Part shown: one piece after another, positions 21,635 to 45,030 of the stretch
How the letters are laid out: every line of letters starts with the position of its first letter
Numbering within the stretch: position 1 is the stretch's first letter
Origin: an uncultured Chthonomonas sp.
GTDB lineage: Bacteria; Armatimonadota; Chthonomonadetes; Chthonomonadales; Chthonomonadaceae
DNA length: 64,000 nucleotides
Direction of reading: 5' to 3'
NCBI GenBank assembly: GCA_903919615.1
Contig: CAIXIX010000588.1
Span: 22,324 to 86,323 of the forward strand
The notes under the pieces: model-generated
Databases searched by the model: none
Told to the model about the DNA's origin: nothing
The model's input: only the letters and a program-made list of their open reading frames with translations
Translations under genes and position numbers: made by a program

Positions 21635-21643
21635 GGCTCTCTT

Positions 21644-24600: not shown

Positions 24601-24745
24601 CTTTGCTGTAATCGACCGGGGCACGGAGGCGCAGATTGTCCGGCGGACTTGATTTGTGCGGCGATGCGCAGACAGAGGACGCCGCAAAGGCCAACAGCGG
24701 AGCCATCAGACGAGACGCTCGGTTAAGTGCGAAAATCAAATTCAT
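21644..24745 (-). CDS. PSCyt / DUF1549 / DUF1553 protein (planctomycete-type cytochrome c domain protein)
   Basis: Signal peptide, haem motif CFTCHG, then the DUF1549 block (RRLSLDLTGLAP) and the DUF1553 block (CAKCHSHKYDP). ATG 24745 chosen. GTG 24763, the track start, would overlap the upstream stop as GTGA. Confidence 0.85.
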   Translation of the reverse strand: MNLIFALNRASRLMAPLLAFAASSVCASPHKSSPPDNLRLRAPVDYSKDIRPILAINCFTCHGQDPLTRQGGLRLDTRDTAIASRPSGRAIDPGKPEKSDIIARINTSSSDLIMPPVASQHKLSAEQKRLLSLWVQQGAPYADHWAFSPITRPAQPKIKGTQSAWIRNPIDSFVMHGLQKAGLIPAPEADRYTLIRRLSLDLTGLAPAQSDVAAFMSDGSKQAYEHAVDRLLNSPRYGEYWARMWLDLMRYADTQGYEKDNPRTIWRYRDWVIDAFNTDMPYDRFTVEQLAGDLLPNPTDSQLLATACHRNTMTNTEGGVDPEEFRVAAIKDRVDTTGQVWMGLTIGCAKCHSHKYDPVTNQEYYRFYALFNQTADANYGDETPTAQMPSEDQRKKLAEVQGRVISLRESFNRDSPNLDAQQPAWEKQLAASRTWSNASHIEAKAESGATIHARADGALLVSGTHKDKDVYTLTCAVPAGGITAMRLEALKDPSLPNGGPGRDAADQNVVTSEITIESIAPNAAAGSKLALTNARADFEQGGWPVSAAIDGNPDTGWAFSPQNAQAHVAIFDLKSPLPAVDANQQVRLTIRQNYARLQHGCFRISFSSSDPKLLQPTADDISEIAARAAAKRSDADRQRLKEAFRQTHAPTDAIWKQIAAAEAEQKTLEASIPRIPIMKELTTDKQRVTRIHRRGNFMDPGDTVTPAVPAAFGALPAGAPPNRLGAAQWLVSKSNPLTPRVAVNRIWARMFGVGIVETEEDFGTQGVPPSNPDLLNYLAASFRDDMGWSFKKLCKTIVMSSTYRQASVATPLKKKIDPRNLLLSRGPRFRMTAEMIRDQALAVSGLLSSKMYGPSMMPPQPSGIWRTVYSGMKWETSKGEDRYRRGLYTFWRRSSPYPAMTTFDAGSGEFCVVRRIRTNTPLQALVTLNDPAYIEAAGALGKAMLAASPTDVQQRIVTGFRRTLVRVPYPAEASRLVALYRLTLAGFKAKPEAAKSLLAAANLSASEDRGAELAACITVANVLLNLDETVSKP

Positions 24746-24759
24746 AGGATGTCTCAAGA

Positions 24760-26229
24760 TCACGAGATGATGCCGGGTACGAGCGCCCCGTGAACATCGG
24801 TCAGTCGGAAGTCGCGGCCCTGATAGCGGTAGGTGAGTTTTGTATGCTCAATTCCGAGCTGATGCAGTATCGTCGCCTGCAGATCGTAGGGATGAACCCC
24901 ATCTGCCTCAACGTTGTAGCAGTATTCATCTGGCTTGCCATAGACGGTGCCGCCCTTAAAACCTCCGCCTGCAACCCACATGCTGTAGCAGGTGCCGAGA
25001 TGATCCCTGCCATGCGCGTTGGGCTTAGTGATGTCTCCCTGGACAAAGGTGGTTCGGCCAAACTCGCCGCCCCAGAGGACGATCGTGTCGTCTAGCAAGC
25101 CCCGCTGCTTTAGATCCATCACCAGTGCTGCCGAGGGTTGATCGGTATCTTTACACTGTAACGCAAGCTGCGTATCCAGGTTGCCGTGCTGATCCCAGCC
25201 AGCGTGCATAAGCTGGACAAACCGAACCCCGCGCTCAAGAAGCCGCCGTGCAAGCAGGCAGTTACGAGCAAAAGACCCCTTGCGCTGCACATCCGGCCCG
25301 TACATATCCAGAATGCTTTTCGGCTCCTTTGAGATATCCAGCAGGTCCGGCACGCTGGTCTGCATCTTGTAGGCCATCTCGTACTGGGTAATTCGGGTTT
25401 CGATTTCGGGATCGCCGAATTCCGTGAGCCGCCGATGATTCAGTTCTGAAATGTCATCAAGCTGGCCACGCCGTAGGCTGCGGCTGGTGCCTGAAGGATC
25501 TGCCAGATAGAGAACGGGGTCGCCCTCCCCACGGAAGCGCACTCCCTGATAGCGAGACGGCAGAAAGCCGCTGCCCCAGTAGTAGTCGTAGAAGAGCTGG
25601 CCGCAGGTCTTGCCGGTATCCATTGAGGTCATCACGCAGAAGGCAGGCAGTTCGCTCGTAACGCATCCCAACCCGTAGGTGGCCCAGGCGCCCATGCTGG
25701 GCCGACCGGGTATCTGGCTGCCCGTCATGAAGAGCGTGACGCCAGGAGCGTGATTCACCGCCTCGGTATGCATCGAGTTGATCAAGCAGATCTCGTCCGA
25801 AATTCCGCCGGTGTATGGCAGCATCTCGGAGAGCCACATCCCGTTCTTTCCATACTGCTTAAAGGGCTTGATCGGAGGCAGAACCGGGTAGTTTTTCTGC
25901 CCGGCCGTCATGGTCGAAAGGCGTCCTTTGGATCGGATCGAATCAGGCACCTGTTGCATTCGGCGCTGCTCGAGCAGTGGCTGATGCTGAAAAAGATCCA
26001 CATGCGAGGGAGCGCCGCCCTGCCAGAGTACCACCACGCGCTTTGCCTTAGGCGCGAAATGCGGCAACCCCTGCAGGCCGGGAATCGCAAGCTTCTCTTT
26101 GCCAGGAGGCGCCGCCATACCCTCCTGCTCCAACAGACTAGCGATTGCTGCTATTCCAATGCCGCTGGCCGTTTTTCCAAACAGCTCCCGCCGCGAAGCG
26201 CGAAGATCATTCTCAAAAAGTGGGTTCAT
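24760..26229 (-). CDS. DUF1501 (sulfatase-fold) protein with Tat-like signal
   Basis: ASRRELFGKTASGIGIAAIASL signal plus GGEFGRTT and GRDHL blocks. Paralog of 20072..21634. Confidence 0.85.
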   Translation of the reverse strand: MNPLFENDLRASRRELFGKTASGIGIAAIASLLEQEGMAAPPGKEKLAIPGLQGLPHFAPKAKRVVVLWQGGAPSHVDLFQHQPLLEQRRMQQVPDSIRSKGRLSTMTAGQKNYPVLPPIKPFKQYGKNGMWLSEMLPYTGGISDEICLINSMHTEAVNHAPGVTLFMTGSQIPGRPSMGAWATYGLGCVTSELPAFCVMTSMDTGKTCGQLFYDYYWGSGFLPSRYQGVRFRGEGDPVLYLADPSGTSRSLRRGQLDDISELNHRRLTEFGDPEIETRITQYEMAYKMQTSVPDLLDISKEPKSILDMYGPDVQRKGSFARNCLLARRLLERGVRFVQLMHAGWDQHGNLDTQLALQCKDTDQPSAALVMDLKQRGLLDDTIVLWGGEFGRTTFVQGDITKPNAHGRDHLGTCYSMWVAGGGFKGGTVYGKPDEYCYNVEADGVHPYDLQATILHQLGIEHTKLTYRYQGRDFRLTDVHGALVPGIIS

Positions 26230-26252
26230 ATCAGGCCTCGAACCATAAAGAC

Positions 26253-26328
26253 AGGTAAGTCGGTAGTTGTGTAAGTTGGTAAATGGATTATGCGGATTCA
26301 GGCGTTAGGTTTCAGGTGTTAGGACGGA
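26253..26328 (+). repeat. G/T-rich short tandem tract, copy B4 (longest)
   Basis: GGTAAGTCGGTAGTTGTGTAAGTTGGTAAATGGATTATGCGGATTCAGGCGTTAGGTTTCAGGTGTTAGGACGGAT. It fills the 109-nt spacer between the DUF1553 stop (26339) and the DUF1501 start (26229). Confidence 0.75.
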
Positions 26329-26338
26329 TATGGCCAGC

Positions 26339-29300
26339 CTACTCTCGGGTTAGTGCTTCGTCCAAATTCAGAATTTCGAGACACACGGCGCTGTAGGCTG
26401 CGAGAGCGCATGGATCAAGCTTTGTATCCAATGGGGCCTCGCCGCTCTTCAAGCTCGCAGCTGCTGTTGAAGGATCAGCGCGATATATCCGCATTGCGCG
26501 ATCCAGACCACGATGCAGCACCTTTACTTCCGATGCCGATGGCGTTCGAGAGCAGACTCTTCGGAAAGCCACTGCGAGCTTTAGATCGGGGTCGCTGCCC
26601 GGAATAGCCATCACATTCTGCGCCAACACGCGTGCAGCCTCGATCCACGTTACGTCGTTAAGCGTGGTGAGAGCGTGCAGCGGAGTGCTCGTTACCACGA
26701 GGCGCACCTTGCATGTTTGCCGCACGGAGGCATCGAACATGTTTGCTGGCGCGACGGTGCGCCTCCAGAAAGTATACAGACTGCGCCGATATAGGTCTGC
26801 GCCTTTCGATTGTGGGTACGAGAAGTCTCGCTCGTTGGTGATGGCGAGCCCATCCCAGATTCCCTTCGGCTGATAGGGATAAACAGGTTTACCTCCGATC
26901 TTCGGATTGAGCAAACCTGAAGCAGAAAGGGCGATATCTCGCAGAATGAGCGATGGCATCCGGAACCTTGATCCTCGAGCAACGAGGCGATTTTCCGGGT
27001 CCTTTACACGCAGAGCAGCGCTGCATTTTGAGCTCTGCCGATAGGTGGCGCTCGTCACGATGAGCCGCTGCATCTTCTTTACGTTCCAACCACTATCTCG
27101 GAATTCACTCGCGAGCCAATCGAGAAGTTCCGGATGGCTTGGCGCTTCACACTGCGTTCCAAAGTTCTCAGAGGTCTTTACCAGCCCCTGACCGAAGAAG
27201 AGCTGCCAGTACCGGTTCACCTGCACACGGGCCGTTAGGGAGTTCTCCGGGCTGACCAGCCACTGTGCGAGCCCCAGACGGTTGCGTGGAGCACTAGCGG
27301 GCATCGGCGACCACGCAGCCGGGGTGATTGCTTGAACCTCCTCTGCTGGCGACTCGTAGTTTCCGCGGAGCAAGAGATGCGTCTTGCGCGGCTGCGCATC
27401 GGACATTACCATGACCTTGGGAAAAGAGGCCTTTGCGTCTGCCAGCTCCTTCTCGATCATCGCGGTAGCAGCACGGGCCTGCTTTACTTCGGCCGGCGCC
27501 AGATTTGCGAGATAGTAATCTCTAACCTTAGCGCTATCCGCAGCCGACCGACCTAGGCCGAGGTGGAGGAGCTTGACGATATCCGCTGGAATTCCAGCTT
27601 CGAGCTGTTTGAAGTAGAACCCCCCAATTCCACCACCATTTACGATTTTAATCAGCAGGTCATTTTCGCCTGCTTTCAAGTTAACCGTCACCAGCTCTTG
27701 ATCTGCGGAGGCCGCTCTCGACGCTTTGTCGGCAACAACCTGAGCCCCGTTTAACCACACTTTGATCGCGTCGTCACTTCCAAAGGAGAGGCGCTGGGAG
27801 ACACTGCGGTTCGAGCGGATCTTTCTAAATAAGTAGAATGCGCTGTTTTCGCCGCTCAGCGCGTTGACCGCAGCGTCCTTGAATTCTGGATGGGGCGTCC
27901 ACTTAATCGGATGGTCCGACGATGATAGGGCATATGGTTTTTCCGGCTTTAGACCAACTTCCGGATCGAACTGTCGATCGTAAGCGACATCAAAACTATC
28001 GGCGGGATAGGGACCCGACATCTGCCAAGGATCGAGACTTACCTCATTTGCTCCAGCGCCGATAGCCTGGATCTCCCACGCCGCCTGTGCTTCGCGTAAA
28101 GTCGGAGTCGATTCTGAAGCGTCCTGGATCTTTTTAGCAGCGTTCAGACGGCTCTCGATCGCCTGGATTTTGAGATTATCCTCATCGGTTGGTACCACAA
28201 TATAGGGGTCAGCAATGCGATACTGGCCACCAAACGGCGGCACACCAGACTCCGGCACATTGTTGAAGAACGCCATGAAGCTGTAGTAGTCTTTCCGCGT
28301 CAGCGGATCGTACTTGTGATCGTGGCACTGAGCGCATGCCATCGTTGCCCCGAGCCAGGTGGTCGCCGTGACATCTACTCTATCGAAGAGTAGGACGTTG
28401 CGCTGTTCCTCAGGGATTGCACCGCCCTCGCCGTTAAGCAGGCAGCAGCGATTGAACCCTGTGGCAACCTTCTGATCGACCGTAGCATTGGGCAGCAGAT
28501 CTCCGGCAAGCTGTTGGATGGTGAACTGATCGAACGGCATATTGCTGTTCATCGCCTTCACAACCCAGTCTCGCCAGACGTACTGATAGGTATCTCCATC
28601 CTGCTGAAATCCATTGCTGTCGGCATACCGTGCAGTATCGAGCCACGGCAGGGCCATCTTTTCGCCGTAGTGCGGTGATGCAAACAGCCTATCCACCGCA
28701 TGTTCGTAGCTATTTGGGGTCTTATCGGCCAGAAATGTATCCAATTCGGCCGGAGTTGGCGGCAGCCCGGTGAGATCCAGAGTAACGCGCCTAAGCAGCG
28801 TTACGCGATCTGCCTCTGGAGAAGGCTTGAGCCCCTCCTTCTCAAGTCGCGACAAGATAAACGTATCGATGGGATTGCGTACCCAGCCCTTATTCTGTAC
28901 CGCTGGCAACTTAGACTTCACAGGCGGTATATAGGCCCAGTGCTTCTTCTCTAATCCAGTCGGCCACACGGCGCCCTGATCGACCCATGCTTTCAACAAA
29001 ACTTGCTGCGCAGCTGTTAGGGGAGTAAAGCCGAGCGGCATTACGGGCTTGCCGCCAGCGCCAAGCACTCTCTGAATCAGGAGGCTCTTGCTGGAGTCGC
29101 CAGGCAAAAGCGCCGGACCGCTTGCACCGCCCTGGAGCATTTCGGCTCTTGTTTCAAGCTGAAGGCCGCCCTGCTTCTGACCATTTCCGTGACATTCCAG
29201 GCACTTCGCCTTCAATATCGGCTGAATATCGCGCGCATAATTTATGCGTGGAGCTGCTACTTCTACCTTCTGACCTAAAGCCAACCAGCCTGCTGTAGGC

Positions 29301-29383
29301 ATAATGATAGTGAGCGCCAGGACGGTAATAGGCCCTCGCAGAACGAACGCTGATTTCAAAGATTTGCGATTATAAGAATGCAT
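26339..29383 (-). CDS. PSCyt / DUF1549 / DUF1553 protein
   Basis: Haem motif CLECHG, the block RRVTLDLTGLPP, and CAQCHDHKYDP. ATG 29383 chosen because the track start 29437 is TTG. Paralog of 21644..24745. Confidence 0.85.
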   Translation of the reverse strand: MHSYNRKSLKSAFVLRGPITVLALTIIMPTAGWLALGQKVEVAAPRINYARDIQPILKAKCLECHGNGQKQGGLQLETRAEMLQGGASGPALLPGDSSKSLLIQRVLGAGGKPVMPLGFTPLTAAQQVLLKAWVDQGAVWPTGLEKKHWAYIPPVKSKLPAVQNKGWVRNPIDTFILSRLEKEGLKPSPEADRVTLLRRVTLDLTGLPPTPAELDTFLADKTPNSYEHAVDRLFASPHYGEKMALPWLDTARYADSNGFQQDGDTYQYVWRDWVVKAMNSNMPFDQFTIQQLAGDLLPNATVDQKVATGFNRCCLLNGEGGAIPEEQRNVLLFDRVDVTATTWLGATMACAQCHDHKYDPLTRKDYYSFMAFFNNVPESGVPPFGGQYRIADPYIVVPTDEDNLKIQAIESRLNAAKKIQDASESTPTLREAQAAWEIQAIGAGANEVSLDPWQMSGPYPADSFDVAYDRQFDPEVGLKPEKPYALSSSDHPIKWTPHPEFKDAAVNALSGENSAFYLFRKIRSNRSVSQRLSFGSDDAIKVWLNGAQVVADKASRAASADQELVTVNLKAGENDLLIKIVNGGGIGGFYFKQLEAGIPADIVKLLHLGLGRSAADSAKVRDYYLANLAPAEVKQARAATAMIEKELADAKASFPKVMVMSDAQPRKTHLLLRGNYESPAEEVQAITPAAWSPMPASAPRNRLGLAQWLVSPENSLTARVQVNRYWQLFFGQGLVKTSENFGTQCEAPSHPELLDWLASEFRDSGWNVKKMQRLIVTSATYRQSSKCSAALRVKDPENRLVARGSRFRMPSLILRDIALSASGLLNPKIGGKPVYPYQPKGIWDGLAITNERDFSYPQSKGADLYRRSLYTFWRRTVAPANMFDASVRQTCKVRLVVTSTPLHALTTLNDVTWIEAARVLAQNVMAIPGSDPDLKLAVAFRRVCSRTPSASEVKVLHRGLDRAMRIYRADPSTAAASLKSGEAPLDTKLDPCALAAYSAVCLEILNLDEALTRE

Positions 29384-29521
29384 CTGGTCGGATACCTGGG
29401 AAAAAGAGTGTGTGCGACTGCACGATAGACGCAGCAATAATTGGTGATGCCCTAAGCTGACTGATCGTTAGCCCTTTAGATCGCTATTCCCTGCTTTTGT
29501 TTCCGCATAGAATAGTAAGTG

Positions 29522-29557
29522 AACAAAGCCCATCCTGAAACCAGGATGGGCTTTGTT
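29522..29557. terminator. 16-bp perfect hairpin
   Basis: AACAAAGCCCATCCTG-AAAC-CAGGATGGGCTTTGTT, 45 nt downstream of stop 29602(-). Confidence 0.6.
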
Positions 29558-29601
29558 GCCATTCGTCAACATTCCGCGTTAGGTCAAAGACTGTGAGCCT
29601 A

Positions 29602-30744
29602 CTAGAACTTGCGTTTCTTTGCCGGTGCATTGCCAACTTGTGTCAGCGTCCAATGTCCGCTGATATCCTGAAGCACATAGCTTACGTAGGTTGTCTGGAT
29701 CTGATTATTCTGATCGCGATACGTCTGCTTACCGGCGACAGAGAAGACACCTGGCGCACGCTGGTGCAGATAGTTCAGTGTAAAGTTGACGGTATGCATC
29801 GAGAGAATTGCATCTCGAGTGAGATCCACATAGTCATTTGAAGTGAGTGAATACTGGTAGTGACCGTTCAAATAGATCGCAATCGAGGTGTTCGGATCGA
29901 TGAGCGATACGAGCCCTTCGATATTGCCACCCTGGAAGGTTTCGGTAATTGCGTCGACTGCGTTAAGCAGACCCGGCTGCTCCTGATCGAGAGTAGGGTC
30001 GTTTAACAGGTTCTGATCGGCGGCATCCGCGAAGCTGGTGAATACGACGCCATTAAAAACAGGCACATCGATGAATACGACTGATGGCGGAAAGATACGA
30101 CACTGGTCGGCAGAAATGAAGGGCACGCATACGCCAAAGTAGAAGCCAAAGGGAGAAATATAGCTGCTGCCCCTGATGAAACTCTGGCGATAACCGTTAA
30201 AGTGGGCCTTGCCCTTCGGGAAATATGGCCTTTGCCACGCCTGTGAAACATTGACGCCATGATGAAGAATAAGACCGTTATCGTAGACGCGGCCCGCGGC
30301 AGTGTGTGTAAAGCTGCGCTGATTGACTATAACTGGTGACGTAGGTGTAACCCTTCGGCGATCTGTCTGATGATTTGGCGTCTGGACTGAGACGGGATCG
30401 GCAGCCTGCCGCGGAGCATCCTCATGTCGTGGCACAAAGTTTGGTGTTCGCACGATGTCGCGCGGCGCATGAACCGGTGGCCCGCTCTCCTGGCGTTGTG
30501 GCGGGGCGCTTCTTGGCTGCGGATTCGTTCGCTGCGGAGGAGGGTTACTCTGTTGGGGCTGTCGTTGCTGCTGAGGCTGTCTCTGCGGAGGAGGAGTACT
30601 CTGTCGCTGCGGTGGCGGTGACTGCCTCTGTTGCGGAGGATGAATAAATTGTCCGCTGTTTTGCGGCACGGCAAATGTTGTCGCTGGCAGCGTAATAACC
30701 AGTCCCGCAAGCAGCGATGCTGATGCTATCTTGTTGAAACGCAT
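29602..30744 (-). CDS. Secreted protein with P/Q-rich PPPQRQ repeat region
   Basis: Signal peptide MRFNKIASASLLAGLVITLPATTFA, followed by QQRQSPPPQRQSTPPPQRQPQQQRQPQQSNPPPQR and a globular C-terminal half of unknown fold. Confidence 0.7.
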   Translation of the reverse strand: MRFNKIASASLLAGLVITLPATTFAVPQNSGQFIHPPQQRQSPPPQRQSTPPPQRQPQQQRQPQQSNPPPQRTNPQPRSAPPQRQESGPPVHAPRDIVRTPNFVPRHEDAPRQAADPVSVQTPNHQTDRRRVTPTSPVIVNQRSFTHTAAGRVYDNGLILHHGVNVSQAWQRPYFPKGKAHFNGYRQSFIRGSSYISPFGFYFGVCVPFISADQCRIFPPSVVFIDVPVFNGVVFTSFADAADQNLLNDPTLDQEQPGLLNAVDAITETFQGGNIEGLVSLIDPNTSIAIYLNGHYQYSLTSNDYVDLTRDAILSMHTVNFTLNYLHQRAPGVFSVAGKQTYRDQNNQIQTTYVSYVLQDISGHWTLTQVGNAPAKKRKF

Positions 30745-30926
30745 GGTGTCCTACCCTTTCTTTTAAGAGGCCAAGCAGGCGCCTCCGTAACGTTTTGAGC
30801 GCTATTTCAATCTGGTGGGCAAATTGGCGGCTCTTGAGATGAGTAATTACCGGTTATCTCTTTCTGTCGCCATTTTGCCGTAGCTAATGCAACCTGTTTG
30901 TTATTTTGATATACGTTTAGGGCCAT

Positions 30927-30941
30927 GATACGTGACGTATC
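30927..30941. promoter_or_regulatory. Perfect 15-bp palindrome, candidate operator
   Basis: GATACGT-G-ACGTATC in the divergent spacer between 30744(-) and 31110(+). A related half-site GATATACGT lies at 30908-30916. Confidence 0.35.
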
Positions 30942-31109
30942 AAACCTCTGCCAGGTTCCTGTAACTTAGCGGCGCAGACCGAATGTTTAATTCCAACAAA
31001 TTTTCTGTAGATTGCGGTTTGCCTGTTGGCGGCGTCGAATATGCTTGTGAACTGTCCGGCCAAAGTGCGTCTTACCGGCGCGCAAACAACAGGACCATTG
31101 GAGATTAGA

Positions 31110-33644
31110 ATGAGATTTGTTTTTGTGGCGCTCGCGATGTCCCTGATTTCAATGATGATCACTAACGCTCGAGCGGCCGGGTTAACACCAGATCAGATGT
31201 GTGGTTGGAAGATCGTTTGTGACAGCAATGCAGCGCCCTCGGAGCGGTACGCAGCAGAACAGTTTCAACTGCTCTTTAAAGGGCTCACTGGCACGGAGCT
31301 TGCGGTTGTTACGTCGCTCACAGTTGGCGAAGGCGCCATATTGATTGGGCCGGATGCAGCAAGTAAAGCGGGATTGCCACCTATTGGCAAGGGAGTGGAC
31401 GAGGAGACACTACGAATTCAGGTAGATCAGCGCTCTGTAGCCATCGATGGCGGCCGACCGCGAGGAACACTCTATGGTGTTTATGAGTTTTTCGAAGAGC
31501 TTTGCGGCGTTCGCTACCTCACTTTTGACGACACATACTATCCGCCAGATGCTCACTCAAAGGTAATTGCGCTCGGCACGAGGCAGTTTACGCCGAAATT
31601 TGCGTTCCGCTGGTCTTATTACGGCGAAACGAACCAGAATCCTGAGTTCGCCGCTCGCTTGCACACGAACACGGTGACGGACAAACCGGAGCTAGGCGGA
31701 ATCACAGGTTATCATCTGGTAAACCACTGCGTGGCGTACCTGGTGCCTCCTGCTGTCTACGGCAAATCCCATCCTGAATACTACGCCGAGGTCAATGGAA
31801 AGCGCATTTGGGATACCACGGATGGTGGCGGACCGCAGCTATGCCTCACCAATCCCAAAGTTCGCGATGTGCTCGCTGCCGCGATAGAAGAAGAGATCCA
31901 GAAGAACCCGGATCAGCGCAACTTCAATATCGCTCAGATGGATAACGCCAACTACTGCACTTGCCCGAACTGCAAAGCGCTGGATGATCGTGAGGGATCG
32001 CATGCTGGCACGATGATCGCATTTGTAAACTCCGTTGCCGAGATCGTCGAGAAGAAACATCCCAATGTCCTGCTGAGCACCTTCGCCTACTGGTACACGC
32101 GAAAACCACCGAAAACGATTCGACCGAGGCACAACGTGATGGTTCAGCTATGCAGCATTGAGTGCTGCACGCTTCATGCTATCGACGACCCCTCCTGTGC
32201 TCTAAATCGCGAGTTCTGCCACGACATGAAGGTTTGGAACAGGCTGTGCGACAAGCTGTTCATCTGGCATTACAACACCAACTTCTCTGCCTACACGCTC
32301 CCCTTTCCAAATTTGCGAAGCATTGGCAAGAGCGTCAGCTATTTCGCTAAGCACAGCGGCCGAGGCGTGTTTATGCAGGCTGCCGGAAATGGTTTTTCAA
32401 CGGAAATGAGCGACCTGCGTAACTACGTGATGTCGAGATGTCTCTGGAAGCCCGGACGTGATAGTTGGGCCGAAGCAATAGAGTTCTGTAAGCTGCATTA
32501 TCGGGAGTCCGCGGATCCGATCATCGCTTACCTAACCGATCTGCACGATCGGGTTCAGGCCGCGGGAGCGCATCCGACGTGCTTTTCAACAGAATCGACG
32601 TTATGCGTCACCCCGGATTCGGCCCGACGCATGATGGCCTACTTCAACGAGGCGATTTCGCTTGCGAAGTCTGATGTCGTGCGAGACCGCGTGGAGAAGG
32701 CCTCTCTGTGCGTCAATCGCGCTGCGTTAAGTGGTTCAAGCATCGATCTTGTGTATGCCGATGATGTCTGCAAGCCGGACCTGACGGGGCTAGACCCAAA
32801 TCTTCTAGACACGTATGTGGCGATGTGCAAGAAGTTTGGCGTTACCATGGAGAGCGAAGGGATCTCCACGGAGAGCTATATTAGCGGAATACGTAACTTC
32901 TACGGTGGCCTTAAAGCGGTGAGGATCGAGAACAAAACCTGGCGCATTGTTCTGCTCCCCGGAAGCAACGGCAAACTCGTAGAGATGACCTATAAACCAA
33001 CCGGACGCAATCTCATAAAACCGCATAGAGCATTCAACAGGTTCCGCTACGAAGAGTGGGTCCGAAGCGGTCATGGACCCAGCGGATCTCAACTCTTGAG
33101 TTACGAGGTTGCAAATCTTCAACCGGACAGCGTCTCCTTATCGTTAACCGCCAGAGATGGAACGAAGTTTGAGCGCAAGATCTCGCTCTCCTCTGATGCG
33201 GTGCATTTTGATACAGAGATCACTGCAGGCGTCGATCGCTCTCTGGATCTGTGGGTTCATCCCGAATACGATGCCGGCACCAGTTCAGCAGACCCACAGA
33301 CGGTACAGATCTATGTGAAGCAGGGCGATAAACTGTTGCACGCCAACAAGGGATGGAAAAATGCGCTTTCAAACCCGGCGCAGGAGGCGAAGGTCCGTGA
33401 ATCTGCACGATTCGGCTACTTTGCGATGTTCAATGACGAGCTGAAATACGGAGTGGAAGAGCGCTTCGCGCCAGATCAGTTCCGGGAGCTTGCCCTGTTC
33501 TGGGGTATATCCCGACAGCAGGTGAATCTCGAGCTCATCCCCCGCGTCATGTCGCTCGCTCGAGGTGAAAAGACACACTATGGTTATGAGGTGCGGTACC
33601 TGGCGGAGAAGCCGGGGGAGCAGGGAATAGGTAAAAGGGACTAG
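31110..33644 (+). CDS. Secreted DUF4838-family (GH20-like) protein
   Basis: ATG 31110 has GGAG 7 nt upstream and gives signal MRFVFVALAMSLISMMITNARA. CLTNPKVRD...NYCTCPNCKALDD is the cysteine signature I associate with DUF4838. Confidence 0.7.
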   Translation: MRFVFVALAMSLISMMITNARAAGLTPDQMCGWKIVCDSNAAPSERYAAEQFQLLFKGLTGTELAVVTSLTVGEGAILIGPDAASKAGLPPIGKGVDEETLRIQVDQRSVAIDGGRPRGTLYGVYEFFEELCGVRYLTFDDTYYPPDAHSKVIALGTRQFTPKFAFRWSYYGETNQNPEFAARLHTNTVTDKPELGGITGYHLVNHCVAYLVPPAVYGKSHPEYYAEVNGKRIWDTTDGGGPQLCLTNPKVRDVLAAAIEEEIQKNPDQRNFNIAQMDNANYCTCPNCKALDDREGSHAGTMIAFVNSVAEIVEKKHPNVLLSTFAYWYTRKPPKTIRPRHNVMVQLCSIECCTLHAIDDPSCALNREFCHDMKVWNRLCDKLFIWHYNTNFSAYTLPFPNLRSIGKSVSYFAKHSGRGVFMQAAGNGFSTEMSDLRNYVMSRCLWKPGRDSWAEAIEFCKLHYRESADPIIAYLTDLHDRVQAAGAHPTCFSTESTLCVTPDSARRMMAYFNEAISLAKSDVVRDRVEKASLCVNRAALSGSSIDLVYADDVCKPDLTGLDPNLLDTYVAMCKKFGVTMESEGISTESYISGIRNFYGGLKAVRIENKTWRIVLLPGSNGKLVEMTYKPTGRNLIKPHRAFNRFRYEEWVRSGHGPSGSQLLSYEVANLQPDSVSLSLTARDGTKFERKISLSSDAVHFDTEITAGVDRSLDLWVHPEYDAGTSSADPQTVQIYVKQGDKLLHANKGWKNALSNPAQEAKVRESARFGYFAMFNDELKYGVEERFAPDQFRELALFWGISRQQVNLELIPRVMSLARGEKTHYGYEVRYLAEKPGEQGIGKRD

Positions 33645-33730
33645 GGAAGAGTGCGCAAACGCGCGGGAACTACGCCGCAAGCGGCGAGGGAAATACAGGC
33701 TGCGCCCTCATTCCGCTAGTGTCTGAGTTG

Positions 33731-33760
33731 ATCGCCCCGGCTACGGAGTGCCGGGGCGAT
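33731..33760. terminator. 11-bp GC-rich hairpin between convergent genes
   Basis: ATCGCCCCGGC-TACGGAGT-GCCGGGGCGAT followed by TGCTT. Lies between stops 33644(+) and 33817(-). Confidence 0.6.
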
Positions 33761-33816
33761 TGCTTAGAATAGGAACTAGGTTCTGGCTTCGTCAGGTTAG
33801 GTCCGCGTCGTTGACG

Positions 33817-34479
33817 TTATCGCTGTGACGTATTTTTCGCTGCTAGGCGGCGACGCCTAAGAACTGACCAACCGCTGATACCAAGACCCATAACCATTGC
33901 TACGGCGCCTGGTTCTGGTGTTCTGGCCTGGCCATAGATTTGGAACGACTCCGAGTTCGTGCCTGGATATACGACATTTGTAAACATCGAAGAGGTTGGG
34001 CCATTGTTGTTATCCCAGTAGCCTCTTCCTCCACGCGACAATTGCGCCTGGCCAAGTGTAAGCCAGTATGTACCCGGCGCCAGATCGGCATTAATGAGGA
34101 AGCTGTATTCTGAACGATCCCATTGATTTTGATAATTTCCGAACACCAGCGTATCAATAGTCGCTGCAGATGTGCCCATCGCGATGTCGTTGGCTTGAGG
34201 CTGCGTTCCAATTTTCCACGTAACGGAAGTTAGGACATTACCAACGTCTGTCCAAATGCCAGCAGTAACCGAGTGAAGACTCGCGGAGTTGATTAGGCTA
34301 AACGCGTCCGATGCGTCATACGTTGTGTCAATGGCGAACGCACTTGCAGGAAATCCTGGCACCGGTCCGTCCCTGTACATCGGTCCGTTATCAAAAAGGA
34401 GCTGATCCGCTTTTGCCGAGCTGCTAGTCATTACCACAAGCAATAGGCCAATACCGATAAAACTGGATAATCGAAGCAT
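33817..34479 (-). CDS. PEP-CTERM sorting-domain secreted protein
   Basis: Track ORF trimmed to ATG 34479, giving signal MLRLSSFIGIGLLLVVMTSSSAKA. C-terminus TPEPGAVAMVMGLGISGWSVLRRRRL. Confidence 0.75.
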   Translation of the reverse strand: MLRLSSFIGIGLLLVVMTSSSAKADQLLFDNGPMYRDGPVPGFPASAFAIDTTYDASDAFSLINSASLHSVTAGIWTDVGNVLTSVTWKIGTQPQANDIAMGTSAATIDTLVFGNYQNQWDRSEYSFLINADLAPGTYWLTLGQAQLSRGGRGYWDNNNGPTSSMFTNVVYPGTNSESFQIYGQARTPEPGAVAMVMGLGISGWSVLRRRRLAAKNTSQR

Positions 34480-34596
34480 CTGTTGACACCTTTCCGTATC
34501 AAGAATTCGAGTTCGTGCAGCATGTTGAAACATTGTTAGTGTTCTAGAACCTGGACCGAACGATGGCAGATCACGATTTGTGACAGCAATGCGTAC

Positions 34597-34627
34597 AGTA
34601 TCGATACAAAGCGTGGCAAAAAGCGTT
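34597..34627 (-). promoter_or_regulatory. CACGCTT-type direct-repeat box plus GATACT upstream of PEP-CTERM gene 33817..34479
   Basis: Minus strand reads AACGCTT (34627..34621), 5 nt, CACGCTT (34615..34609), 6 nt, GATACT (34602..34597). Confidence 0.55.
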
Positions 34628-34760
34628 GCAAATTTCCGATGATTTGCGGACCGACCCACCATTAAGCAGCTTTTTTGTGGATCACCTTTACTATATTCAG
34701 CGGCGGTAGTTACGCATTTTGGTAATTTTGATCGCCTGATCGCAATTGACCCGAATATGC

Positions 34761-34791
34761 CACGCTTTTTGCCACGGTTGACCGTGATAAT
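34761..34791 (+). promoter_or_regulatory. CACGCTT-type direct-repeat box plus GATAAT upstream of frameshifted PEP-CTERM gene
   Basis: CACGCTT (34761-34767), 5 nt, CACGGTT (34773-34779), 6 nt, GATAAT (34786-34791). Confidence 0.55.
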
Positions 34792-34872: not shown

Positions 34873-35849
34873 ATGAGGGGGGATTTTCCCAAACATCTCG
34901 TTTTTGGGCTAATGCATCGCACGACCATGGTTGCAGCGGCAGCCTTTGCTTGCAGCACCTCTGCAAGAGCGCAATTCATAACTCTGAACGACCCGCTGGC
35001 AACGAACGGGACGTATGCAACTGGAATATCGGATCAACGATAGTTGGCAGCTACTACATCGCTTTCGGTATTCCTTATCCTTTCGAGTACGTGAACGGCG
35101 TCTACAGTTCCATTCCGGACGCTGTTGGAGCACGACAATCGGAAATGGTCTCCATATCAGGAAACACCGGACTCGGATGGTATGAGGACCATTCGACGCT
35201 GCAGCACTACTGGTATACAAGATCAGGCGGCGTGAACTCAATTGTTACCGATTTTTCACCACCGTACGGTCTTGACGCTAGCCTCACGGGAATATCCGGG
35301 AACAACCTGATTGGCTACACGAATGGAGGGGGCAGCAACTACTACGGGCTGTTTTACGACGGCAGCACAACAGTTGACCTAATTGAACATGCCGGCACCG
35401 ACACGTATGCGTTAGGCGTTGACGGAACGAACGTCGTTGGCGAGATCTTAGTGGCAGGCCCAGCTACTCAGAGCTTCCTTTACAATGCTCGCACGTTTAC
35501 GCCACTAATCGACCCACTTGCCTACGGGGAGACCATCGCTCGCGGGATATCCGGCGCAAACATCGTTGGCGATTATACGGATATGACAACTGAACACGGG
35601 TTTATTATTAACGCTACGAGATGGACTACGTACGACGTTCCGGTGGCTGAAGCCGTACAAACAGAGATTCAGGGCATATCTGGAAATACGATCTATGGGC
35701 AATACTTCACACACAACAGCCAGCTATACGGATTCGTGGATACTCTCAACCTATCCCCTTCATCCACTCCCGAGCCAGGAAATGTCGCAACTCTGATCGG
35801 GATAACTATTACCGCGGGCCTGGCGATTCAGCGCAGGCGCATTCGGTAA
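34873..35849 (+). pseudogene. HAF-like repeat PEP-CTERM protein, frameshifted near 35031
   Basis: ATG 34873 (GAAAGGAG upstream) gives signal ...AAAAFACSTSARA, then QFITLNDPLATNGTYATGIS. That frame stops at 35041-35043. The protein continues in the next frame as STIVGSYY... to TPEPGNVATLIGITITAGLAIQRRRIR. One extra G in TCGGA (35029-35033) would restore GISGSTIVG, matching the internal GISGxxIVG repeats. Confidence 0.65.
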
Positions 35850-35969: not shown

Positions 35970-35988
35970 GTTACGCTCATGTTACGAT
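35970..35988 (+). promoter_or_regulatory. GTTACG direct repeats upstream of SBBP protein gene
   Basis: GTTACGCT, 3 nt, GTTACGAT, with 11-nt phasing. Lies 99-117 nt before ATG 36087. Confidence 0.3.
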
Positions 35989-36086
35989 GCGGCTGTAGCA
36001 TACTCCTGACAAGCGCACTCCACCCTTTGACAATCGCGTCGAAACTCACTCGACGGCTGAACTCGGGAGCCTTGTCGGGAGGGATC

Positions 36087-39487: not shown

Positions 39488-42400
39488 CTACTCACTCAGC
39501 GCGATTTGTGCCGCGCTATTCAGATCCATACTGCCTCCTTGAAGAACTAATGCTCTAAAACGCGCTTCTCCTATCCCCTCAGCAATAGCTGCTGAGGTCC
39601 GGGTAAATCCGGATCCTGGAGGCGCAAGACGCAGCCGCATTCTCTCTGCAGCGCACCAGCCACAAAGCAGCGCAGCCTCCTCATTGAATCCAAGCAAGTT
39701 TCTGAGGTTCGCGCTTTCCTCAATACACTTGAGTATGCCGACTCGAAAGTCGATCTCAAGTGCGAGGTTGAGCGACTCATGGAGTGATGCCCGTGCCCTC
39801 TCGTACTGTCCAATTTTCATCGCTACAAGAGCGATCCCGGTATGCGCTTCGGATATTCCCCCCTTGCTGCCCGTCGACTGATGATGCTTGAGGGTAGCCG
39901 CAAAACAGGAGAGAGCCTCGCTATACTCTCCTCGCGCCAGGTGAACTTGACCCAATCCATATCTAGCCTCAAACTCCACCCGCGGTTGGCCGGTTTCAAT
40001 CGAGAGCTCTATTGCCTTAAGGCTGTTGGAATAAGCTGCGTCCAGATCGCCCATTTCTCGGTAGATATACTCTAGCCTCGATCGCACGTTGGCTTCGCTG
40101 TATTTGTTGCCAAGTCGCGTCACTAGTTCAACGGCTCTGAGGCATACAACCAGCGCGGCCTCCAAATCACCTTTGAGAATGTATACATATGCAAGAGCCG
40201 AGAGTGCGCGAGCAATCTGGCTGTAATTCTTCAGCTGTTCGAGCAGGTCCAAAACAATATTGAACAGCTTCTCAGCTTCATCAAGCTCATTAACCAATCT
40301 CGACATGTTGGCGAGGCAGAGCACTGTTCTGGCGTGCAACTCCGTGTTTTGTTGAATCCCCTTATGCTCGTAAGCCCTTCGAAGATAGTGCATTCCATGT
40401 ATGAAGTAGGATCGAACATGCCAGAACCGCTCAAGCCCACATGCTAAGCTTGCAGCGAGTTCGCCTCCATCTGGATCCAGTAACGTTATCTCAAGGGCGG
40501 AGCGTATATTGGCGTATTCTGCAGCGACCCAGGCAACGCCCTGTTCAATTGGCGCCGTCCACGAGTTCCAAAGGCGGTGGTTCAGGTAAGTTGCGAAGTT
40601 TCGAACGAGCCCACGATGCTCCGGCAATGCTCTCAGCTTTTCGCCGGCATATTCGCGGATTGTATCGAGCATTCTGTAGCGAACTGAATCTCCGACTCGT
40701 TCCATTACGATCAACGAGCGGTCTACCAGTGCGCTCACCAGATCCATAATGGCTTCACGTTTGAGGGATGGGTACAATTCGTTCCGCGTGAATTCGCCGA
40801 TAGAAGGTGAGTGAGAGGAGTCAAAATCTGGAGGCTGCGAACTGCAGACCTGCTCAGCAGCCTCGAGCGTCCATCCGCCTGTAAATTCTGCGAGATAGGC
40901 GAGCAGCTTTTTCTCATCCTCTGTGAGCAGGACATAGGACCAATCGACCAGAGCTCTTAAAGTCTGCTGCCGTGGCATTGCGACCCTGCTGCCCGTGGTT
41001 AAAAGGCTAAACCGATCATTCAGCCGAGACTCGATCTGCTCCGGCGACAGGCTGCGTGTTCGAACCGCAGCAAGCTCAATCGCGAGCGCAATGCCATCCA
41101 ATCGCCGGCAGATGTTTGCGATTGAAGCAAGGTTCACCTGCGTAACACGAAACGTGGAGTTTGCTTCACGTGCACGCTGAACAAATAGCTGCACGGAAGA
41201 GTAGTCCAGCACGGTATCAACGGTCGGCTTTGAAACGGCCCCGGCATCTCCCACACCAATAGCCGGAGGAATCTCCAGTGTGGGCACCTGAAATACGCGC
41301 TCCCCGGAAATGTTGAGAGGCTGGCGACTGGTAGCAATTACCTTGAGAAAAGGAACTGCCTGGATCAGTTTATGAACCTGTAGTGCGCATGCGTCGATCA
41401 GGTGTTCGCAATTGTCAAGAATAACCAGGGATCTGCACTCCGCAAGGTTTTTCACTATGGCTTCAGAGAGTTCTACACCAACCTGCTCCGAAATCCCGGC
41501 CGCCTCTGCCATTACAATCGGCAGCATCGTTGGCTCCGAAACTGAAGCGAGATCGACAAAGAGAATCCCGTCCGTGTAAATTGCGTTTTGATGCTGGGCG
41601 ACATCCAGAGCCAGTCGCGTCTTCCCGATACCACCAGGACCGGTGAGCGTAACCAGCTTCGTCGAATTCAACAGGGAGACCACTTCGAGACGGGCATCTT
41701 CACGGCCGAAAAGAGTGGTCAGTGGCCTTGGAAGCGGCTTGAATTGTGTTGGCGTATGTTGAGGATTCGCAAACGTGGAACAACCACTGTCAACTGCGCG
41801 TGCTTTGCTCCGTATTGGCTCTGAATGCTGCGGTAGTGTGTGTCGTTCTCGAAGGATTTCGAACAGGGCCTGAGTTTCGGCATCAGGCTGCGTATTGAGC
41901 TCACCATGAAGGAGGAGGCGCAAATCACGATATGCCTTTATCGCCTCCGGGACATTGCCTGAGTTTGAGAGCGCGTGCATCAGAGTACGGTACGCCGACT
42001 CGTTGAACGCATCGGACGCGATCAGCTGCCGGGCGAAACCTGCTGCCTGTAGCCATGCGCCGGATTCTAGTGCGCTTGCGGCGAGCGCATCGAGTGCTAA
42101 TGCGTATTGCTGTTCGCGCAGCACACGGGCAGGTATGGCCCACTCTTCCGGGCATTCGACCAGCAGTGGGCCGCGGTACAGCGAAACGGCCTGCTTGAGC
42201 GAAGCAATATCACCATTATACAGTAACTGATCGAACTCAGTCAGGTCACAGACGACGCCTTCTCGTTCCAGACAAATGGTGCGATAGGATTCGGATTGAA
42301 TAAGTCTGCGGTAATCGCCCAGGTCGTTGTTTAGGTCGCTCAAAGCTCGGCGAAGATAGTAACGCGCCATTCCGGTCTCGGCATCTGGCCATAGGGCAGT

Positions 42401-42595
42401 GGAGAGCCACGCCCTATCAACCGGTTTGCCAAGGTTGAGCGCAAGAAGGCCGAGAAGCCACTGCTCCTTCCGGGTCTTGAGGACCATTGGGCCAGCGCCA
42501 GACAGCTCCAGAATGCCAAATAGGTTGATTGTTAGTTGTGCGGGGTATGATGCGTTGGTGGCGCCAGGCATTAGCTTCTCCGGTCGGCTCGCCAT
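39488..42595 (-). CDS. AfsR-like regulator: SARP winged-helix + BTAD + NB-ARC (STAND) NTPase + TPR array
   Basis: N-terminal LTINLFGILELSG...LWPDAETGMARYYLRRALSDL (OmpR-type wHTH). BTAD helices AYRTLMHALSNSGNVPEAIKAYRDLRLLL. Walker A GPGGIGKTRLAL. Long TPR C-terminus. Alternative start ATG 42571 has a better GGAG. Confidence 0.85.
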   Translation of the reverse strand: MASRPEKLMPGATNASYPAQLTINLFGILELSGAGPMVLKTRKEQWLLGLLALNLGKPVDRAWLSTALWPDAETGMARYYLRRALSDLNNDLGDYRRLIQSESYRTICLEREGVVCDLTEFDQLLYNGDIASLKQAVSLYRGPLLVECPEEWAIPARVLREQQYALALDALAASALESGAWLQAAGFARQLIASDAFNESAYRTLMHALSNSGNVPEAIKAYRDLRLLLHGELNTQPDAETQALFEILRERHTLPQHSEPIRSKARAVDSGCSTFANPQHTPTQFKPLPRPLTTLFGREDARLEVVSLLNSTKLVTLTGPGGIGKTRLALDVAQHQNAIYTDGILFVDLASVSEPTMLPIVMAEAAGISEQVGVELSEAIVKNLAECRSLVILDNCEHLIDACALQVHKLIQAVPFLKVIATSRQPLNISGERVFQVPTLEIPPAIGVGDAGAVSKPTVDTVLDYSSVQLFVQRAREANSTFRVTQVNLASIANICRRLDGIALAIELAAVRTRSLSPEQIESRLNDRFSLLTTGSRVAMPRQQTLRALVDWSYVLLTEDEKKLLAYLAEFTGGWTLEAAEQVCSSQPPDFDSSHSPSIGEFTRNELYPSLKREAIMDLVSALVDRSLIVMERVGDSVRYRMLDTIREYAGEKLRALPEHRGLVRNFATYLNHRLWNSWTAPIEQGVAWVAAEYANIRSALEITLLDPDGGELAASLACGLERFWHVRSYFIHGMHYLRRAYEHKGIQQNTELHARTVLCLANMSRLVNELDEAEKLFNIVLDLLEQLKNYSQIARALSALAYVYILKGDLEAALVVCLRAVELVTRLGNKYSEANVRSRLEYIYREMGDLDAAYSNSLKAIELSIETGQPRVEFEARYGLGQVHLARGEYSEALSCFAATLKHHQSTGSKGGISEAHTGIALVAMKIGQYERARASLHESLNLALEIDFRVGILKCIEESANLRNLLGFNEEAALLCGWCAAERMRLRLAPPGSGFTRTSAAIAEGIGEARFRALVLQGGSMDLNSAAQIALSE

Positions 42596-42671
42596 GTGGC
42601 GCCCGGGGCGATGCAGTTCATCACCAGATCAGACATTTTACCCTCTTGTAATGCAATTGGCTTAGAATATG

Positions 42672-42703
42672 CCACGCTTTGTGACACGCTTGCCTGCGAA
42701 AAT
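42672..42703 (+). promoter_or_regulatory. CACGCTT direct-repeat box plus -10-like hexamer upstream of NHL PEP-CTERM gene
   Basis: CCACGCTTTGTGACACGCTTGCC. Heptamers at 42673-42679 and 42685-42691. After a 6-nt gap comes GAAAAT at 42698-42703. Confidence 0.55.
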
Positions 42704-42813: not shown

Positions 42814-43752
42814 ATGCTTGTGCTTTCTAAGGCTTCGACAACATGTCGACGCGTTACATTCTCTCGATTCCAGTCTTTCTGCAGCTTAGCTGCGGTTGCT
42901 CTGCTTATTCTGTGCGCCGCCGAAGCGAATGCGCAATTTCTGTATGAATCTGATGCCGGCACCGGAACCATTAACAGGTTCACATCATCCGGCAGCAAGA
43001 GCGTCTTTGCGACGGGATTCTCCTCTCCGAGAGGCATTGTATTCGACAGCAGCGGAAATGCTTACATATCTGAATACGGAGCCGGAGACATTGTCAAGAT
43101 TGCACCAGGCGGAGGGAGAAGCATCTTTGTAAATGACATAACTCTTCCAGAAGGTCTGGCATGCGATAGCAGCGGAAATATCTACGTTGCGGATTATTGG
43201 ACCGGCAACGTCATAAAAATCACGTCTGGGGGTTCAGAATCAATCTTCGCTTCTGGGTTCAATTCACCGAAAGGTATTGCCCTCAATAGCAGTGGCGATC
43301 TCTTTGTGGCATCTGAAGGGGACAACGGCATCTATGAGGTTACTCCGGGAGGATCCGTATCATTATTCGCCTCAGAATCAGCGCCACAGCATGTCGCAGT
43401 CGATAGCCATGGAAACCTGTACGGTACCGTTCAGGACCCAGGTTCGGTTGTAGAGATCAGTCAGGGCGGAGCAAATACGACGATTGGCACCGGATTTACC
43501 TATCCGTGGGGAATCGCGATCGATCCCAGCAGCAATATCTTTGCTTCGGATCTGTACGGAGGCACAATCAAAGAGTACTTCGCCGGTGGAGGAAGCACGA
43601 CGTTCGCTTCAGGGCTCAGCTTACCTGCCGACCTTACATATGTCCCCGGGCCAGCCACGAGTTCTACTCCGGAGCCAGGGACCTTCGCGATGCTGATTTG
43701 TCTGGGAGTAACTGGCACGGCGGTGCTGCGCAAAAGACGCAGATCTGTTTGA
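42814..43752 (+). CDS. NHL-repeat beta-propeller PEP-CTERM protein
   Basis: ATG 42814 follows AGGAGG. Signal ends AEANA. Six units like SPRGIVFDSSGNAYISEYGAGDIVKIAPGG. C-terminus TPEPGTFAMLICLGVTGTAVLRKRRR. Confidence 0.85.
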   Translation: MLVLSKASTTCRRVTFSRFQSFCSLAAVALLILCAAEANAQFLYESDAGTGTINRFTSSGSKSVFATGFSSPRGIVFDSSGNAYISEYGAGDIVKIAPGGGRSIFVNDITLPEGLACDSSGNIYVADYWTGNVIKITSGGSESIFASGFNSPKGIALNSSGDLFVASEGDNGIYEVTPGGSVSLFASESAPQHVAVDSHGNLYGTVQDPGSVVEISQGGANTTIGTGFTYPWGIAIDPSSNIFASDLYGGTIKEYFAGGGSTTFASGLSLPADLTYVPGPATSSTPEPGTFAMLICLGVTGTAVLRKRRRSV

Positions 43753-44998: not shown

Positions 44999-45030
44999 CC
45001 ACGCTTTGTGACACGCTTGCCCTTTATACG
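44999..45030 (+). promoter_or_regulatory. CACGCTT direct-repeat box plus -10-like hexamer upstream of HAF PEP-CTERM gene
   Basis: The same 23-mer as at 42672-42694. Heptamers at 45000-45006 and 45012-45018. After a 6-nt gap comes TATACG at 45025-45030. Confidence 0.55.

Follow-up and report, generated by a model that had tools for sequence, protein, structure and literature searches.

Tandem heptamers upstream of PEP-CTERM genes in an uncultured Chthonomonas: a probable direct-repeat operator for large SARP-type regulators

PEP-CTERM genes are numerous in environmental bacteria, and their regulation has been described only for Proteobacteria, where it depends on sigma-54 and PrsR. Haft et al. 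(2006) reported a PEP-CTERM box in which an enhancer motif accompanies a sigma-54 −24/−12 promoter. That box is tied to PrsR, PrsK and PrsT and occurs in Proteobacteria only, and the authors said that other PEP-CTERM motifs and regulators were still to be found (PMC1569441). The subject here is a candidate for such an element in another phylum: a pair of tandem heptamers followed by a −10-like hexamer, called the box below, that precedes four PEP-CTERM genes in a 64,000-nt stretch of DNA (the window) from an uncultured Chthonomonas sp. of the Armatimonadota (GenBank assembly GCA_903919615.1, contig CAIXIX010000588.1, positions 22,324 to 86,323 of the forward strand; coordinates below are those of the window). 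Comparison of sequences suggests that the box is probably the promoter-proximal portion of an operator made of direct repeats, at which large transcription activators of the SARP type would bind.

SARPs recognise direct repeats with a period of 11 or 22 bp, the 3′ one being separated from the −10 element by 8 bp (PMC10936776). For AfsR, the afs box covers positions −19 to −40 and stands in for a −35 element of poor quality, and two protomers bound side by side contact sigma region 4 and the core RNA polymerase; the characterised SARP-domain proteins are activators (PMC10936776). PimR recognises both triplets and doublets of heptamers (PMC5930380). In the full-text literature, no paper was found that links PEP-CTERM with SARP/BTAD proteins, and none that links SARPs with Armatimonadota. 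Tandem direct repeats are also a feature of the Pho box and of OmpR-PhoB class II promoters, where winged-helix domains bind head-to-tail and the repeats replace the −35 element about 10 bp upstream of the −10.

Evidence that the box is not a chance resemblance came from a pattern scan of the whole window, on both strands, for CACGNTT-N5-CACGNTT with at most one mismatch, using 100 dinucleotide shuffles as the null. Exactly four matches were found (34609 on the minus strand; 34761, 42673 and 45000 on the plus strand) against a shuffle expectation of 0.32, and none of the 100 shuffles reached four. All four boxes are intergenic, and each is oriented toward a start codon 81-123 nt away. Box 1 (34761..34791, plus strand) reads CACGCTT (34761-67)-tttgc-CACGGTT (34773-79)-gaccgt-GATAAT (34786-91), and box 2 (34597..34627, minus strand) reads AACGCTT (34627..21)-tttgc-CACGCTT (34615..09)-tgtatc-GATACT (34602..34597). 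Box 3 (42673..42703, plus strand) reads CACGCTT-tgtga-CACGCTT-gcctgc-GAAAAT, and box 4 (45000..45030, plus strand) reads CACGCTT-tgtga-CACGCTT-gccctt-TATACG. The −10-like hexamer with which each string ends lies 6 nt past the second heptamer in every case. The 5-nt stretch between the heptamers is conserved as well: the core common to all four boxes is ACGCTTTKTGMCACGSTT, boxes 3 and 4 contain the identical 23-mer CCACGCTTTGTGACACGCTTGCC, and boxes 1 and 2 have the stretch ACGCTTTTTGCCACG in common. The flanks of the boxes are unrelated, whereas the heptamers, the gap and the position of the hexamer are kept. An earlier note, made from the letters of the window, had described the boxes and counted four good ones, each facing a PEP-CTERM gene with heptamer-5-heptamer-6-hexamer spacing; its sequences and coordinates proved exact throughout, as did the 393 bp that it gave for the spacer holding boxes 1 and 2 (34480-34872), and the scan bears out its count. 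These data support a non-random, oriented, promoter-proximal element of fixed heptamer-5-heptamer-6-hexamer geometry.

With the hexamer taken as −12 to −7, the heptamers fall at about −37 to −31 and −25 to −19. No sigma-70 −35/−10 pair was found in 34400-34950, and the −35 position there is taken by CACGCTT. Boxes 1-3 also have in common a GCAA(T/A) unit 22-23 bp before the first heptamer, at what is called the R1 position in the related loci described below. This unit is TCGCAAT for box 1 (34740..34746, plus strand; 22 bp upstream), CCGCAAA for box 2 (34643..34649, minus strand; 23 bp upstream) and ATGCAAT for box 3 (42651..42657, plus strand; 23 bp upstream). The unit of box 1 is weaker than the R1 units of the related loci, and a structural scan of the window gave no convincing R1 unit for box 4. 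No Rfam family matched anywhere in the window, leaders included.

The spacer between the genes of boxes 1 and 2 also holds what had been taken for a degenerate third copy of the box, CACGATTtgtgaCAGCAAT (34572..34590, plus strand). It lies 6 nt from the hexamer 34597-34602, the −10 of box 2, on the opposite side and strand. The resemblance stands, in that the copy includes an exact match to CACGNTTTGTGACA of boxes 3 and 4, a sequence matched three times in the window against 0.10 expected. Its standing as a further copy of the promoter does not: with a degenerate second heptamer and, 6 nt further on, the hexamer AGTATC, the complement of the box 2 −10, it is a mirror-image half box rather than a third promoter. 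The layout of 34572-34627 is CACGATT-5-CAGCAAT-6-AGTATC-6-AAGCGTG-5-AAGCGTT, and the half box would sit within the first ~25 nt of the box-2 transcript.

A divergent regulator gene (39488..42595, minus strand) starts 78 nt from box 3, which is oriented away from it, toward the PEP-CTERM gene 42814-43752. The product of 39488..42595, the candidate cognate regulator (1035 aa; public gene calls give 1027 aa), combines an OmpR-type winged helix-turn-helix with a BTAD (SARP) domain, a P-loop NTPase of NB-ARC/AAA type and TPR repeats. The BTAD domain matched its Pfam model above the cut-off (E=3e-20), and there were matches to TPR_12/TPR_MalT; the NTPase matches (AAA_22, AAA_16, NB-ARC) were all under the Pfam cut-offs, and Trans_reg_C alone was under its own. 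The precomputed domains of homologues agree with the SARP, NTPase and TPR architecture. A profile of the N-terminal 250 aa, compared with the PDB, matched the SARP domain of AfsR over ~240 residues (E=1.2e-14), and EmbR too. The match to the NCBIfam AfsR equivalog NF053617 is partial, at 83 bits against a cut-off of 1430. The predicted architecture is that of a large SARP, yet the protein is not an AfsR orthologue. Its closest homologues, 34-45% identical, come from uncultured soil bacteria, and the few named ones are Chthonomonadales metagenome-assembled genomes at ~35% identity. A second BTAD and NTPase regulator (47231..50683, minus strand) is 27% identical to the first and has a divergent DNA-binding domain.

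Further evidence on the partner of the box came from outside the locus. Other assemblies of the region (L001, L205, L206) are all 100% identical to the window, and a scan of a genome collection with the core ACGCTTTKTGMCACGSTT gave, among the matches listed, no more than isolated chance hits dispersed over unrelated taxa. A total of 78 metagenome loci encoding relatives of the regulator's N-terminal domain (L127-L204) were fetched, and direct 9-mer pairs were counted within 400 nt before the start of the regulator gene in 72 loci and in controls. Pairs spaced 12 bp apart occurred in 21 loci against 6.4 in the controls, and pairs spaced 23 bp apart in 11 against 1.9, with further peaks at 11 bp (10 against 2.7) and 22 bp (7 against 2.5). 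On the strand leading away from the regulator, the repeats are arranged as R1 -23 bp- R2 -12 bp- R3 -6 nt- TAnnnT, and they carry an ACG core (consensus nnGGnAACGCTTTTCCT for R1, CnGGnnACGCTGT for R2 and CnGnnnACGC for R3). R1 is the unit nearest the regulator, whose own start codon is 0-100 nt away in most of these loci. A conserved T-tract follows R1, giving (A/C)ACG(C/T)TTTTCCT, and is absent from R2 and R3.

The prevalence and polarity of this tripartite design were assessed with a structural score, devised after part of the same data had been seen and set at a threshold of 22; the opposite strand, random windows and held-out loci, scored under the same scheme, served as controls. The threshold was reached in 21 of 68 regions leading away from the regulator, in 0 of 68 leading toward it and in 0 of 268 random windows of the same loci, and three held-out loci scored 24, 22 and 19 away from the regulator against at most 16 toward it. 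Without its −10 term, the score was passed by 21 of 64 “away” regions against 2 of 64 “toward” regions. In 21 sites picked without regard to the −10, a −10-like hexamer (A at position 2, T at position 6 and at least 4/6 of TATAAT) followed R3 at a distance of exactly 6 nt in 15 and of 7 nt in 2, with hardly any at other distances. The independent −10 positions in these loci therefore confirm the 6-nt gap that the earlier note had drawn for the window. Among the 21 best sites, the R1-R2/R2-R3 spacing was 23/12 in 13, 22/12 in 4 and 22/11 in one. On the same scale box 3 scores 23 away from the regulator and 15 toward it, boxes 1 and 2 score 22 each, and box 4 scores 19.

What varies among the related loci, and what does not, indicates the partner of the repeats. 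The loci range from 53 to 71% G+C, and the genes downstream encode 1-Cys peroxiredoxins, alpha/beta hydrolases, prepilin-like proteins and further proteins with signal peptides; not one of the 29 is a PEP-CTERM gene. The sole gene common to all of the loci is the regulator. The repeat units also vary from locus to locus and agree inside a locus (GGGTACG, CGGACACG, TGCACACGG, CGTAACGC and others), which is why a 6-mer enrichment search upstream of the regulators was blind to them and returned only A/T-rich words and TTTTCC. Since the units are locus-specific but self-similar within a locus, they are best explained by one locus-specific protein binding several times, unlike a sigma factor. Taken with the regulator as the only common gene, and with the fixed polarity and −10 distance that put a repeat at −35, this self-similarity points to a site at which several protomers of the adjacent regulator bind. 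The box is defined by its partnership with the regulator family, not by the sorting signal of the downstream protein. Relative to R1, −10-like hexamers on the regulator strand showed no sharp peak that would mark the regulator's own promoter; they form a loose cluster 6-15 nt beyond it, a hint of a promoter region shared back to back and of autoregulation.

Two further loci connect the window with this wider set. At L124, the regulator P0010, which is 41% identical to 39488-42595 and was found in two assemblies shared with the window contig (ERZ1426626, ERZ18624032), has a 274-aa PEP-CTERM gene as its divergent neighbour. The spacer between them, GGATACGCTTttacctttattctGGATACGGTTgatgGTACGGCTgcctgaGATACT, holds TACGCTT -23- TACGGTT -12- TACGGCT -6- GATACT, that is, the heptamer-5-heptamer-6-hexamer arrangement with another heptamer and with a third unit 23 bp upstream. 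A search for alleles of the L124 regulator at 90% identity gave no match. L125, a metagenome locus with two related regulators, has TTGACACGCTT...TTGACACGATT, 23 bp apart, before a non-PEP-CTERM gene. All three BTAD regulators seen in this organism are divergent from PEP-CTERM genes, as opposed to 0/29 in the relatives, and the association with PEP-CTERM genes is a local feature of this organism.

There are parallels between the box and the operators of Streptomyces SARPs (the afs box of AfsR and the sites of ActII-ORF4, DnrI and PimR). Both consist of direct repeats on the scale of a heptamer, in doublets or triplets; both have the 3′ repeat next to the −10 element and overlap or replace a −35 element that is poor or absent. 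The afs box covers −19 to −40, and the repeats here cover about −19 to −37, with R1 in addition near −60. SARP sites are bound by an OmpR-type winged helix-turn-helix together with a BTAD domain, and a protein with both is encoded at the window locus; like AfsR, it joins a SARP domain to NOD/NB-ARC and TPR parts, and in both cases the regulator gene and its target are often transcribed divergently. There are also differences. The periodicity is 12/23 bp (~11.5 bp per unit) in place of the 11 or 22 bp of SARP operators, and 6 nt separate the heptamer, in the form drawn here, from the −10, compared with 8 bp. The core is (A/C/T)ACG(C/G), with a T-rich tail after R1, as against TCGAGxx or CGGCAAG in Streptomyces sites. 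The host is a non-actinobacterial PEP-CTERM bacterium, and the targets of the family are surface or secreted proteins and stress enzymes rather than antibiotic clusters. The use of such a site for PEP-CTERM genes is a further difference. The Pho box and OmpR-PhoB class II promoters likewise have tandem direct repeats in place of the −35, but their period is 11 bp, and the regulators here lack a receiver domain and carry BTAD, NTPase and TPR parts.

These data lead to the following model. Protomers of the regulator would bind the tandem heptamers side by side, and the bound heptamers would stand in for the −35 element, recruiting or adapting a housekeeping sigma-70-type holoenzyme to the TAnnnT −10 located 6 nt downstream; the regulator would act by activation rather than repression. 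Structural work has shown this mode for AfsR at the afs box (AfsR structures: PDB 8HVR, 8K60). The NTPase-TPR part probably gates this activity upon a signal. The full ancestral design would be R1 -23 bp- R2 -12 bp- R3 -6 nt- −10, with R1 nearest the divergent regulator gene, and in this organism it would drive single-gene PEP-CTERM (exosortase-substrate) transcription units. As to which paralogue acts on which box, box 3 is the predicted divergent target of the regulator 39488-42595 itself, whose product would bind boxes 3 and 4 and probably boxes 1 and 2 too. Boxes 4, 1 and 2 would most simply be further members of its regulon, and the L124 paralogue may act likewise via TACGGYT units.

While the sequence data are consistent with this model, several observations weigh against it. 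Boxes 1, 2 and 4 have no adjacent regulator, and they are assigned to 39488-42595 by sequence identity with box 3 only. The 12/23-bp spacing departs from the 11/22 bp by which classical SARP sites are defined. The R1 units in the window are weak, with a GCAAT core in place of ACG, and box 4 lacks one. About two thirds of the related regulator loci fall under the score threshold, P0003 in L125 included, and the scoring scheme was designed after part of the data had been viewed, though the strand, random-window and held-out controls used it. Similarity between DNA-binding domains and similarity between repeat units are weakly correlated, in a comparison confounded by ancestry (Mantel r=0.18, 49/2000 permutations). 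Lastly, the second regulator, 47231-50683, has a divergent PEP-CTERM neighbour but no box: the 134-bp spacer between it and the gene 50818-51504, which is NTTRR-F1 / choice-of-anchor-like, holds no recognisable direct-repeat box. Because its DNA-binding domain is much more divergent, this regulator may recognise some other, undetected site.

An unlikely alternative to the SARP-type operator is a dedicated PEP-CTERM regulon box bound by some other transcription factor, with the BTAD neighbour there by coincidence. A cis element specific to PEP-CTERM genes has a precedent in Proteobacteria (PMC1569441), and the four strict boxes and the L124 box all face PEP-CTERM genes. Against this, the tripartite design is tied to the regulator in at least 21 loci with non-PEP-CTERM targets, and domain scans of the window found no other DNA-binding protein gene in the cluster. 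A C-terminal motif scan identified six PEP-CTERM genes in the window; boxes 1-4 face four of them, and no box precedes the remaining two, 11073-11678 (minus strand) and 50818-51504 (plus strand). In addition, a candidate fifth box of variant form, TACGCTC-atgt-TACGATG-cggctg-TAGCAT (35972..36001, plus strand; 11-bp spacing), is located ~85 nt before ATG 36087 of a gene for a 1089-aa DUF7948/SBBP/DUF11 protein without a PEP-CTERM tail. Its structural score of 24 is the maximum for the window; it is a candidate only, because two hits scoring 22 in the same scan fall within coding regions. Its heptamers resemble those of the L124 paralogue locus (TACGGTT/TACGGCT). The earlier note, by eye, had seen no box in front of a gene without a PEP-CTERM signal. 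For the strict pattern that observation holds, every copy being before a PEP-CTERM gene, whereas the structural scan tops out at the non-PEP-CTERM gene 36087. The implied PEP-CTERM-specific signal is not supported by these findings and by the 0/29 PEP-CTERM targets among the relatives.

A SARP-type operator is also to be distinguished from the promoter of an alternative sigma factor, for example of the extracytoplasmic function (ECF) type, in which one heptamer would be the −35, the hexamer the −10 and the second heptamer incidental. Many soil bacteria encode numerous ECF sigma factors, and the box is bipartite, with fixed spacing and no TTGACA-like −35. This explanation is nonetheless improbable: what lies upstream is a repeat, tandem or triple, that varies among loci yet stays self-similar within each, the −10 is of the housekeeping TAnnnT type, and the element tracks a SARP-type gene and no sigma gene.

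It would be similarly surprising if the box were an operator for repression or autoregulation, with the bound repeats blocking the promoter. The repeats do overlap the core promoter, R1 is 0-100 nt from the regulator start in most related loci, and the mirror half box is just downstream of the box 2 −10. Yet the promoters have no −35 element and should therefore be weak on their own, and the repeats keep a rigid distance upstream of the −10 on a single strand, as in activator sites. The characterised SARP-domain proteins are, moreover, activators (PMC10936776).

Leftover similarity between duplicated promoter regions of paralogues, with no present function, is a very improbable explanation of the box. 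In its favour are the 23-mer identical in boxes 3 and 4, the ACGCTTTTTGCCACG common to boxes 1 and 2, and the paralogy of the genes after boxes 1 and 4. That paralogous pair, though, has different box subtypes, and the genes downstream of boxes 1, 2 and 3 have no homology to one another; the flanks are unrelated while the heptamers, gap and hexamer position are kept, and this geometry is found again in unrelated genomes whose G+C content is 53-71%.

The last alternative, a sigma-54 / PrsR-type PEP-CTERM box, is suggested by box 1, which reads TGCCACGCTTTTTGCC, two mismatches from TGGCAC-N5-TTGCW, but is effectively refuted by the sequence, since one of those mismatches hits a G of the conserved −24 GG, boxes 2-4 have no match at two or fewer mismatches (boxes 3 and 4 lack TTGC), TGGCAC-N5-TTGCW is not enriched in the window (39 matches against 38.4 expected), domain scans of the window found no sigma-54 activator, and the Haft motif is found in Proteobacteria only. 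The Proteobacterial PEP-CTERM box does resemble the element described here in being a cis element in long intergenic regions before single-gene PEP-CTERM units; its 5′ leader is ~70 nt, compared with ~80-125 nt here. It differs in that the box has no sigma-54 motif, a sigma-70-type −10 and a SARP-like STAND regulator. PrsR (NtrC-type), PrsK and PrsT are not encoded in the 64-kb window, and Haft motif 1 (TTTACA-containing, 32-92 nt upstream of motif 2) was not noticed in the box spacers, where no model-based scan was made.

The genes behind the boxes are of several kinds. The predicted target of box 2 (33817..34479, minus strand) encodes a 220-aa PEP-CTERM protein with a signal peptide and a TPEPGAVAMV...RRRR tail (NCBIfam TIGR02595, 19.6 bits, cut-off 16), and that of box 3 (42814..43752, plus strand) is an NHL-repeat, ScyE-like PEP-CTERM gene. 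The predicted target of box 1 (34873..35849, plus strand; ATG 34873) is a HAF-repeat PEP-CTERM gene broken by a −1 frameshift near 35030-35043. Frame 1 ends in …ATGISDQR at TAG 35041-43, and the other frame resumes with …GSTIVGSYY; the paralogue at 45154 suggests that one base is missing near TCGGAT. Because split gene calls (56 aa + 234 aa) recur in independent assemblies, the frameshift is likely real and represents a pseudogene or a recoding event. Downstream of box 4 (45154..45636, plus strand) is a HAF-type gene with a 127-aa open reading frame, an in-frame TAA (45535-45537) and then the PEP-CTERM tail PTPTTPEPDALATVLGLGITAIAAIRKRRNMR. This tail is complete and in the same frame past the stop codon, and public gene calls end at 127 aa; the TAA represents either a nonsense mutation that removes the anchor or a site of stop-codon read-through. 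Distant homologues of the HAF-repeat PEP-CTERM protein (at most 37% identity; L120-L122) have ordinary TTGACA-17-TAnnnT promoters and no box, and the box therefore does not travel with the HAF-repeat PEP-CTERM family.

Elsewhere in the window, 29602-30744 encodes a 380-aa secreted protein with a long N-terminal Pro/Gln-rich repeat region (PPQRQ… units) and no family assignment. The regions 20072-29437 and 52611-57654 hold three pairs of genes for PSCyt1/PSCyt2/PSD1 (DUF1549/DUF1553, ~1030-1060 aa) and DUF1501 (~490-520 aa) proteins, and two of these three pairs form a minus-strand tandem. Planctomycetota-like genomes typically carry this gene pair, and the DUF1501 protein is ~70% identical across Planctomycetota, Verrucomicrobiota and Acidobacteriota. 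In the relatives P0151, P0152 and P0157 its identity is 79-87%.

If the box is indeed a SARP-type operator, the regulator 39488-42595 and its boxes offer a concrete candidate pair for the control of PEP-CTERM genes. A broader proposal, which could as easily prove wrong as right, is that the locus belongs to a large class of one-regulator/one-target switches in uncultured soil bacteria (53-71% G+C), in which an NLR-like SARP-STAND-TPR sensor controls a divergent gene via a tripartite operator; in the lineage of the window, the switch would have been recruited and its sites multiplied, such that single PEP-CTERM proteins are switched on by separate signals. A switch of this kind would provide a sigma-54-independent answer to the 2006 question of how PEP-CTERM genes are regulated outside Proteobacteria. 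The promoter-activation design known from the antibiotic regulators of Streptomyces seems to be widely used outside Actinobacteria by STAND/NLR-like sensors, and the slightly longer 12/23-bp repeat is a natural variant for studying protomer spacing and contacts with RNA polymerase. Annotators could also use the tripartite design as a rule, at the level of sequence, to predict which genes are the direct targets of the hundreds of “SARP family/predicted ATPase” genes that are otherwise unannotated.

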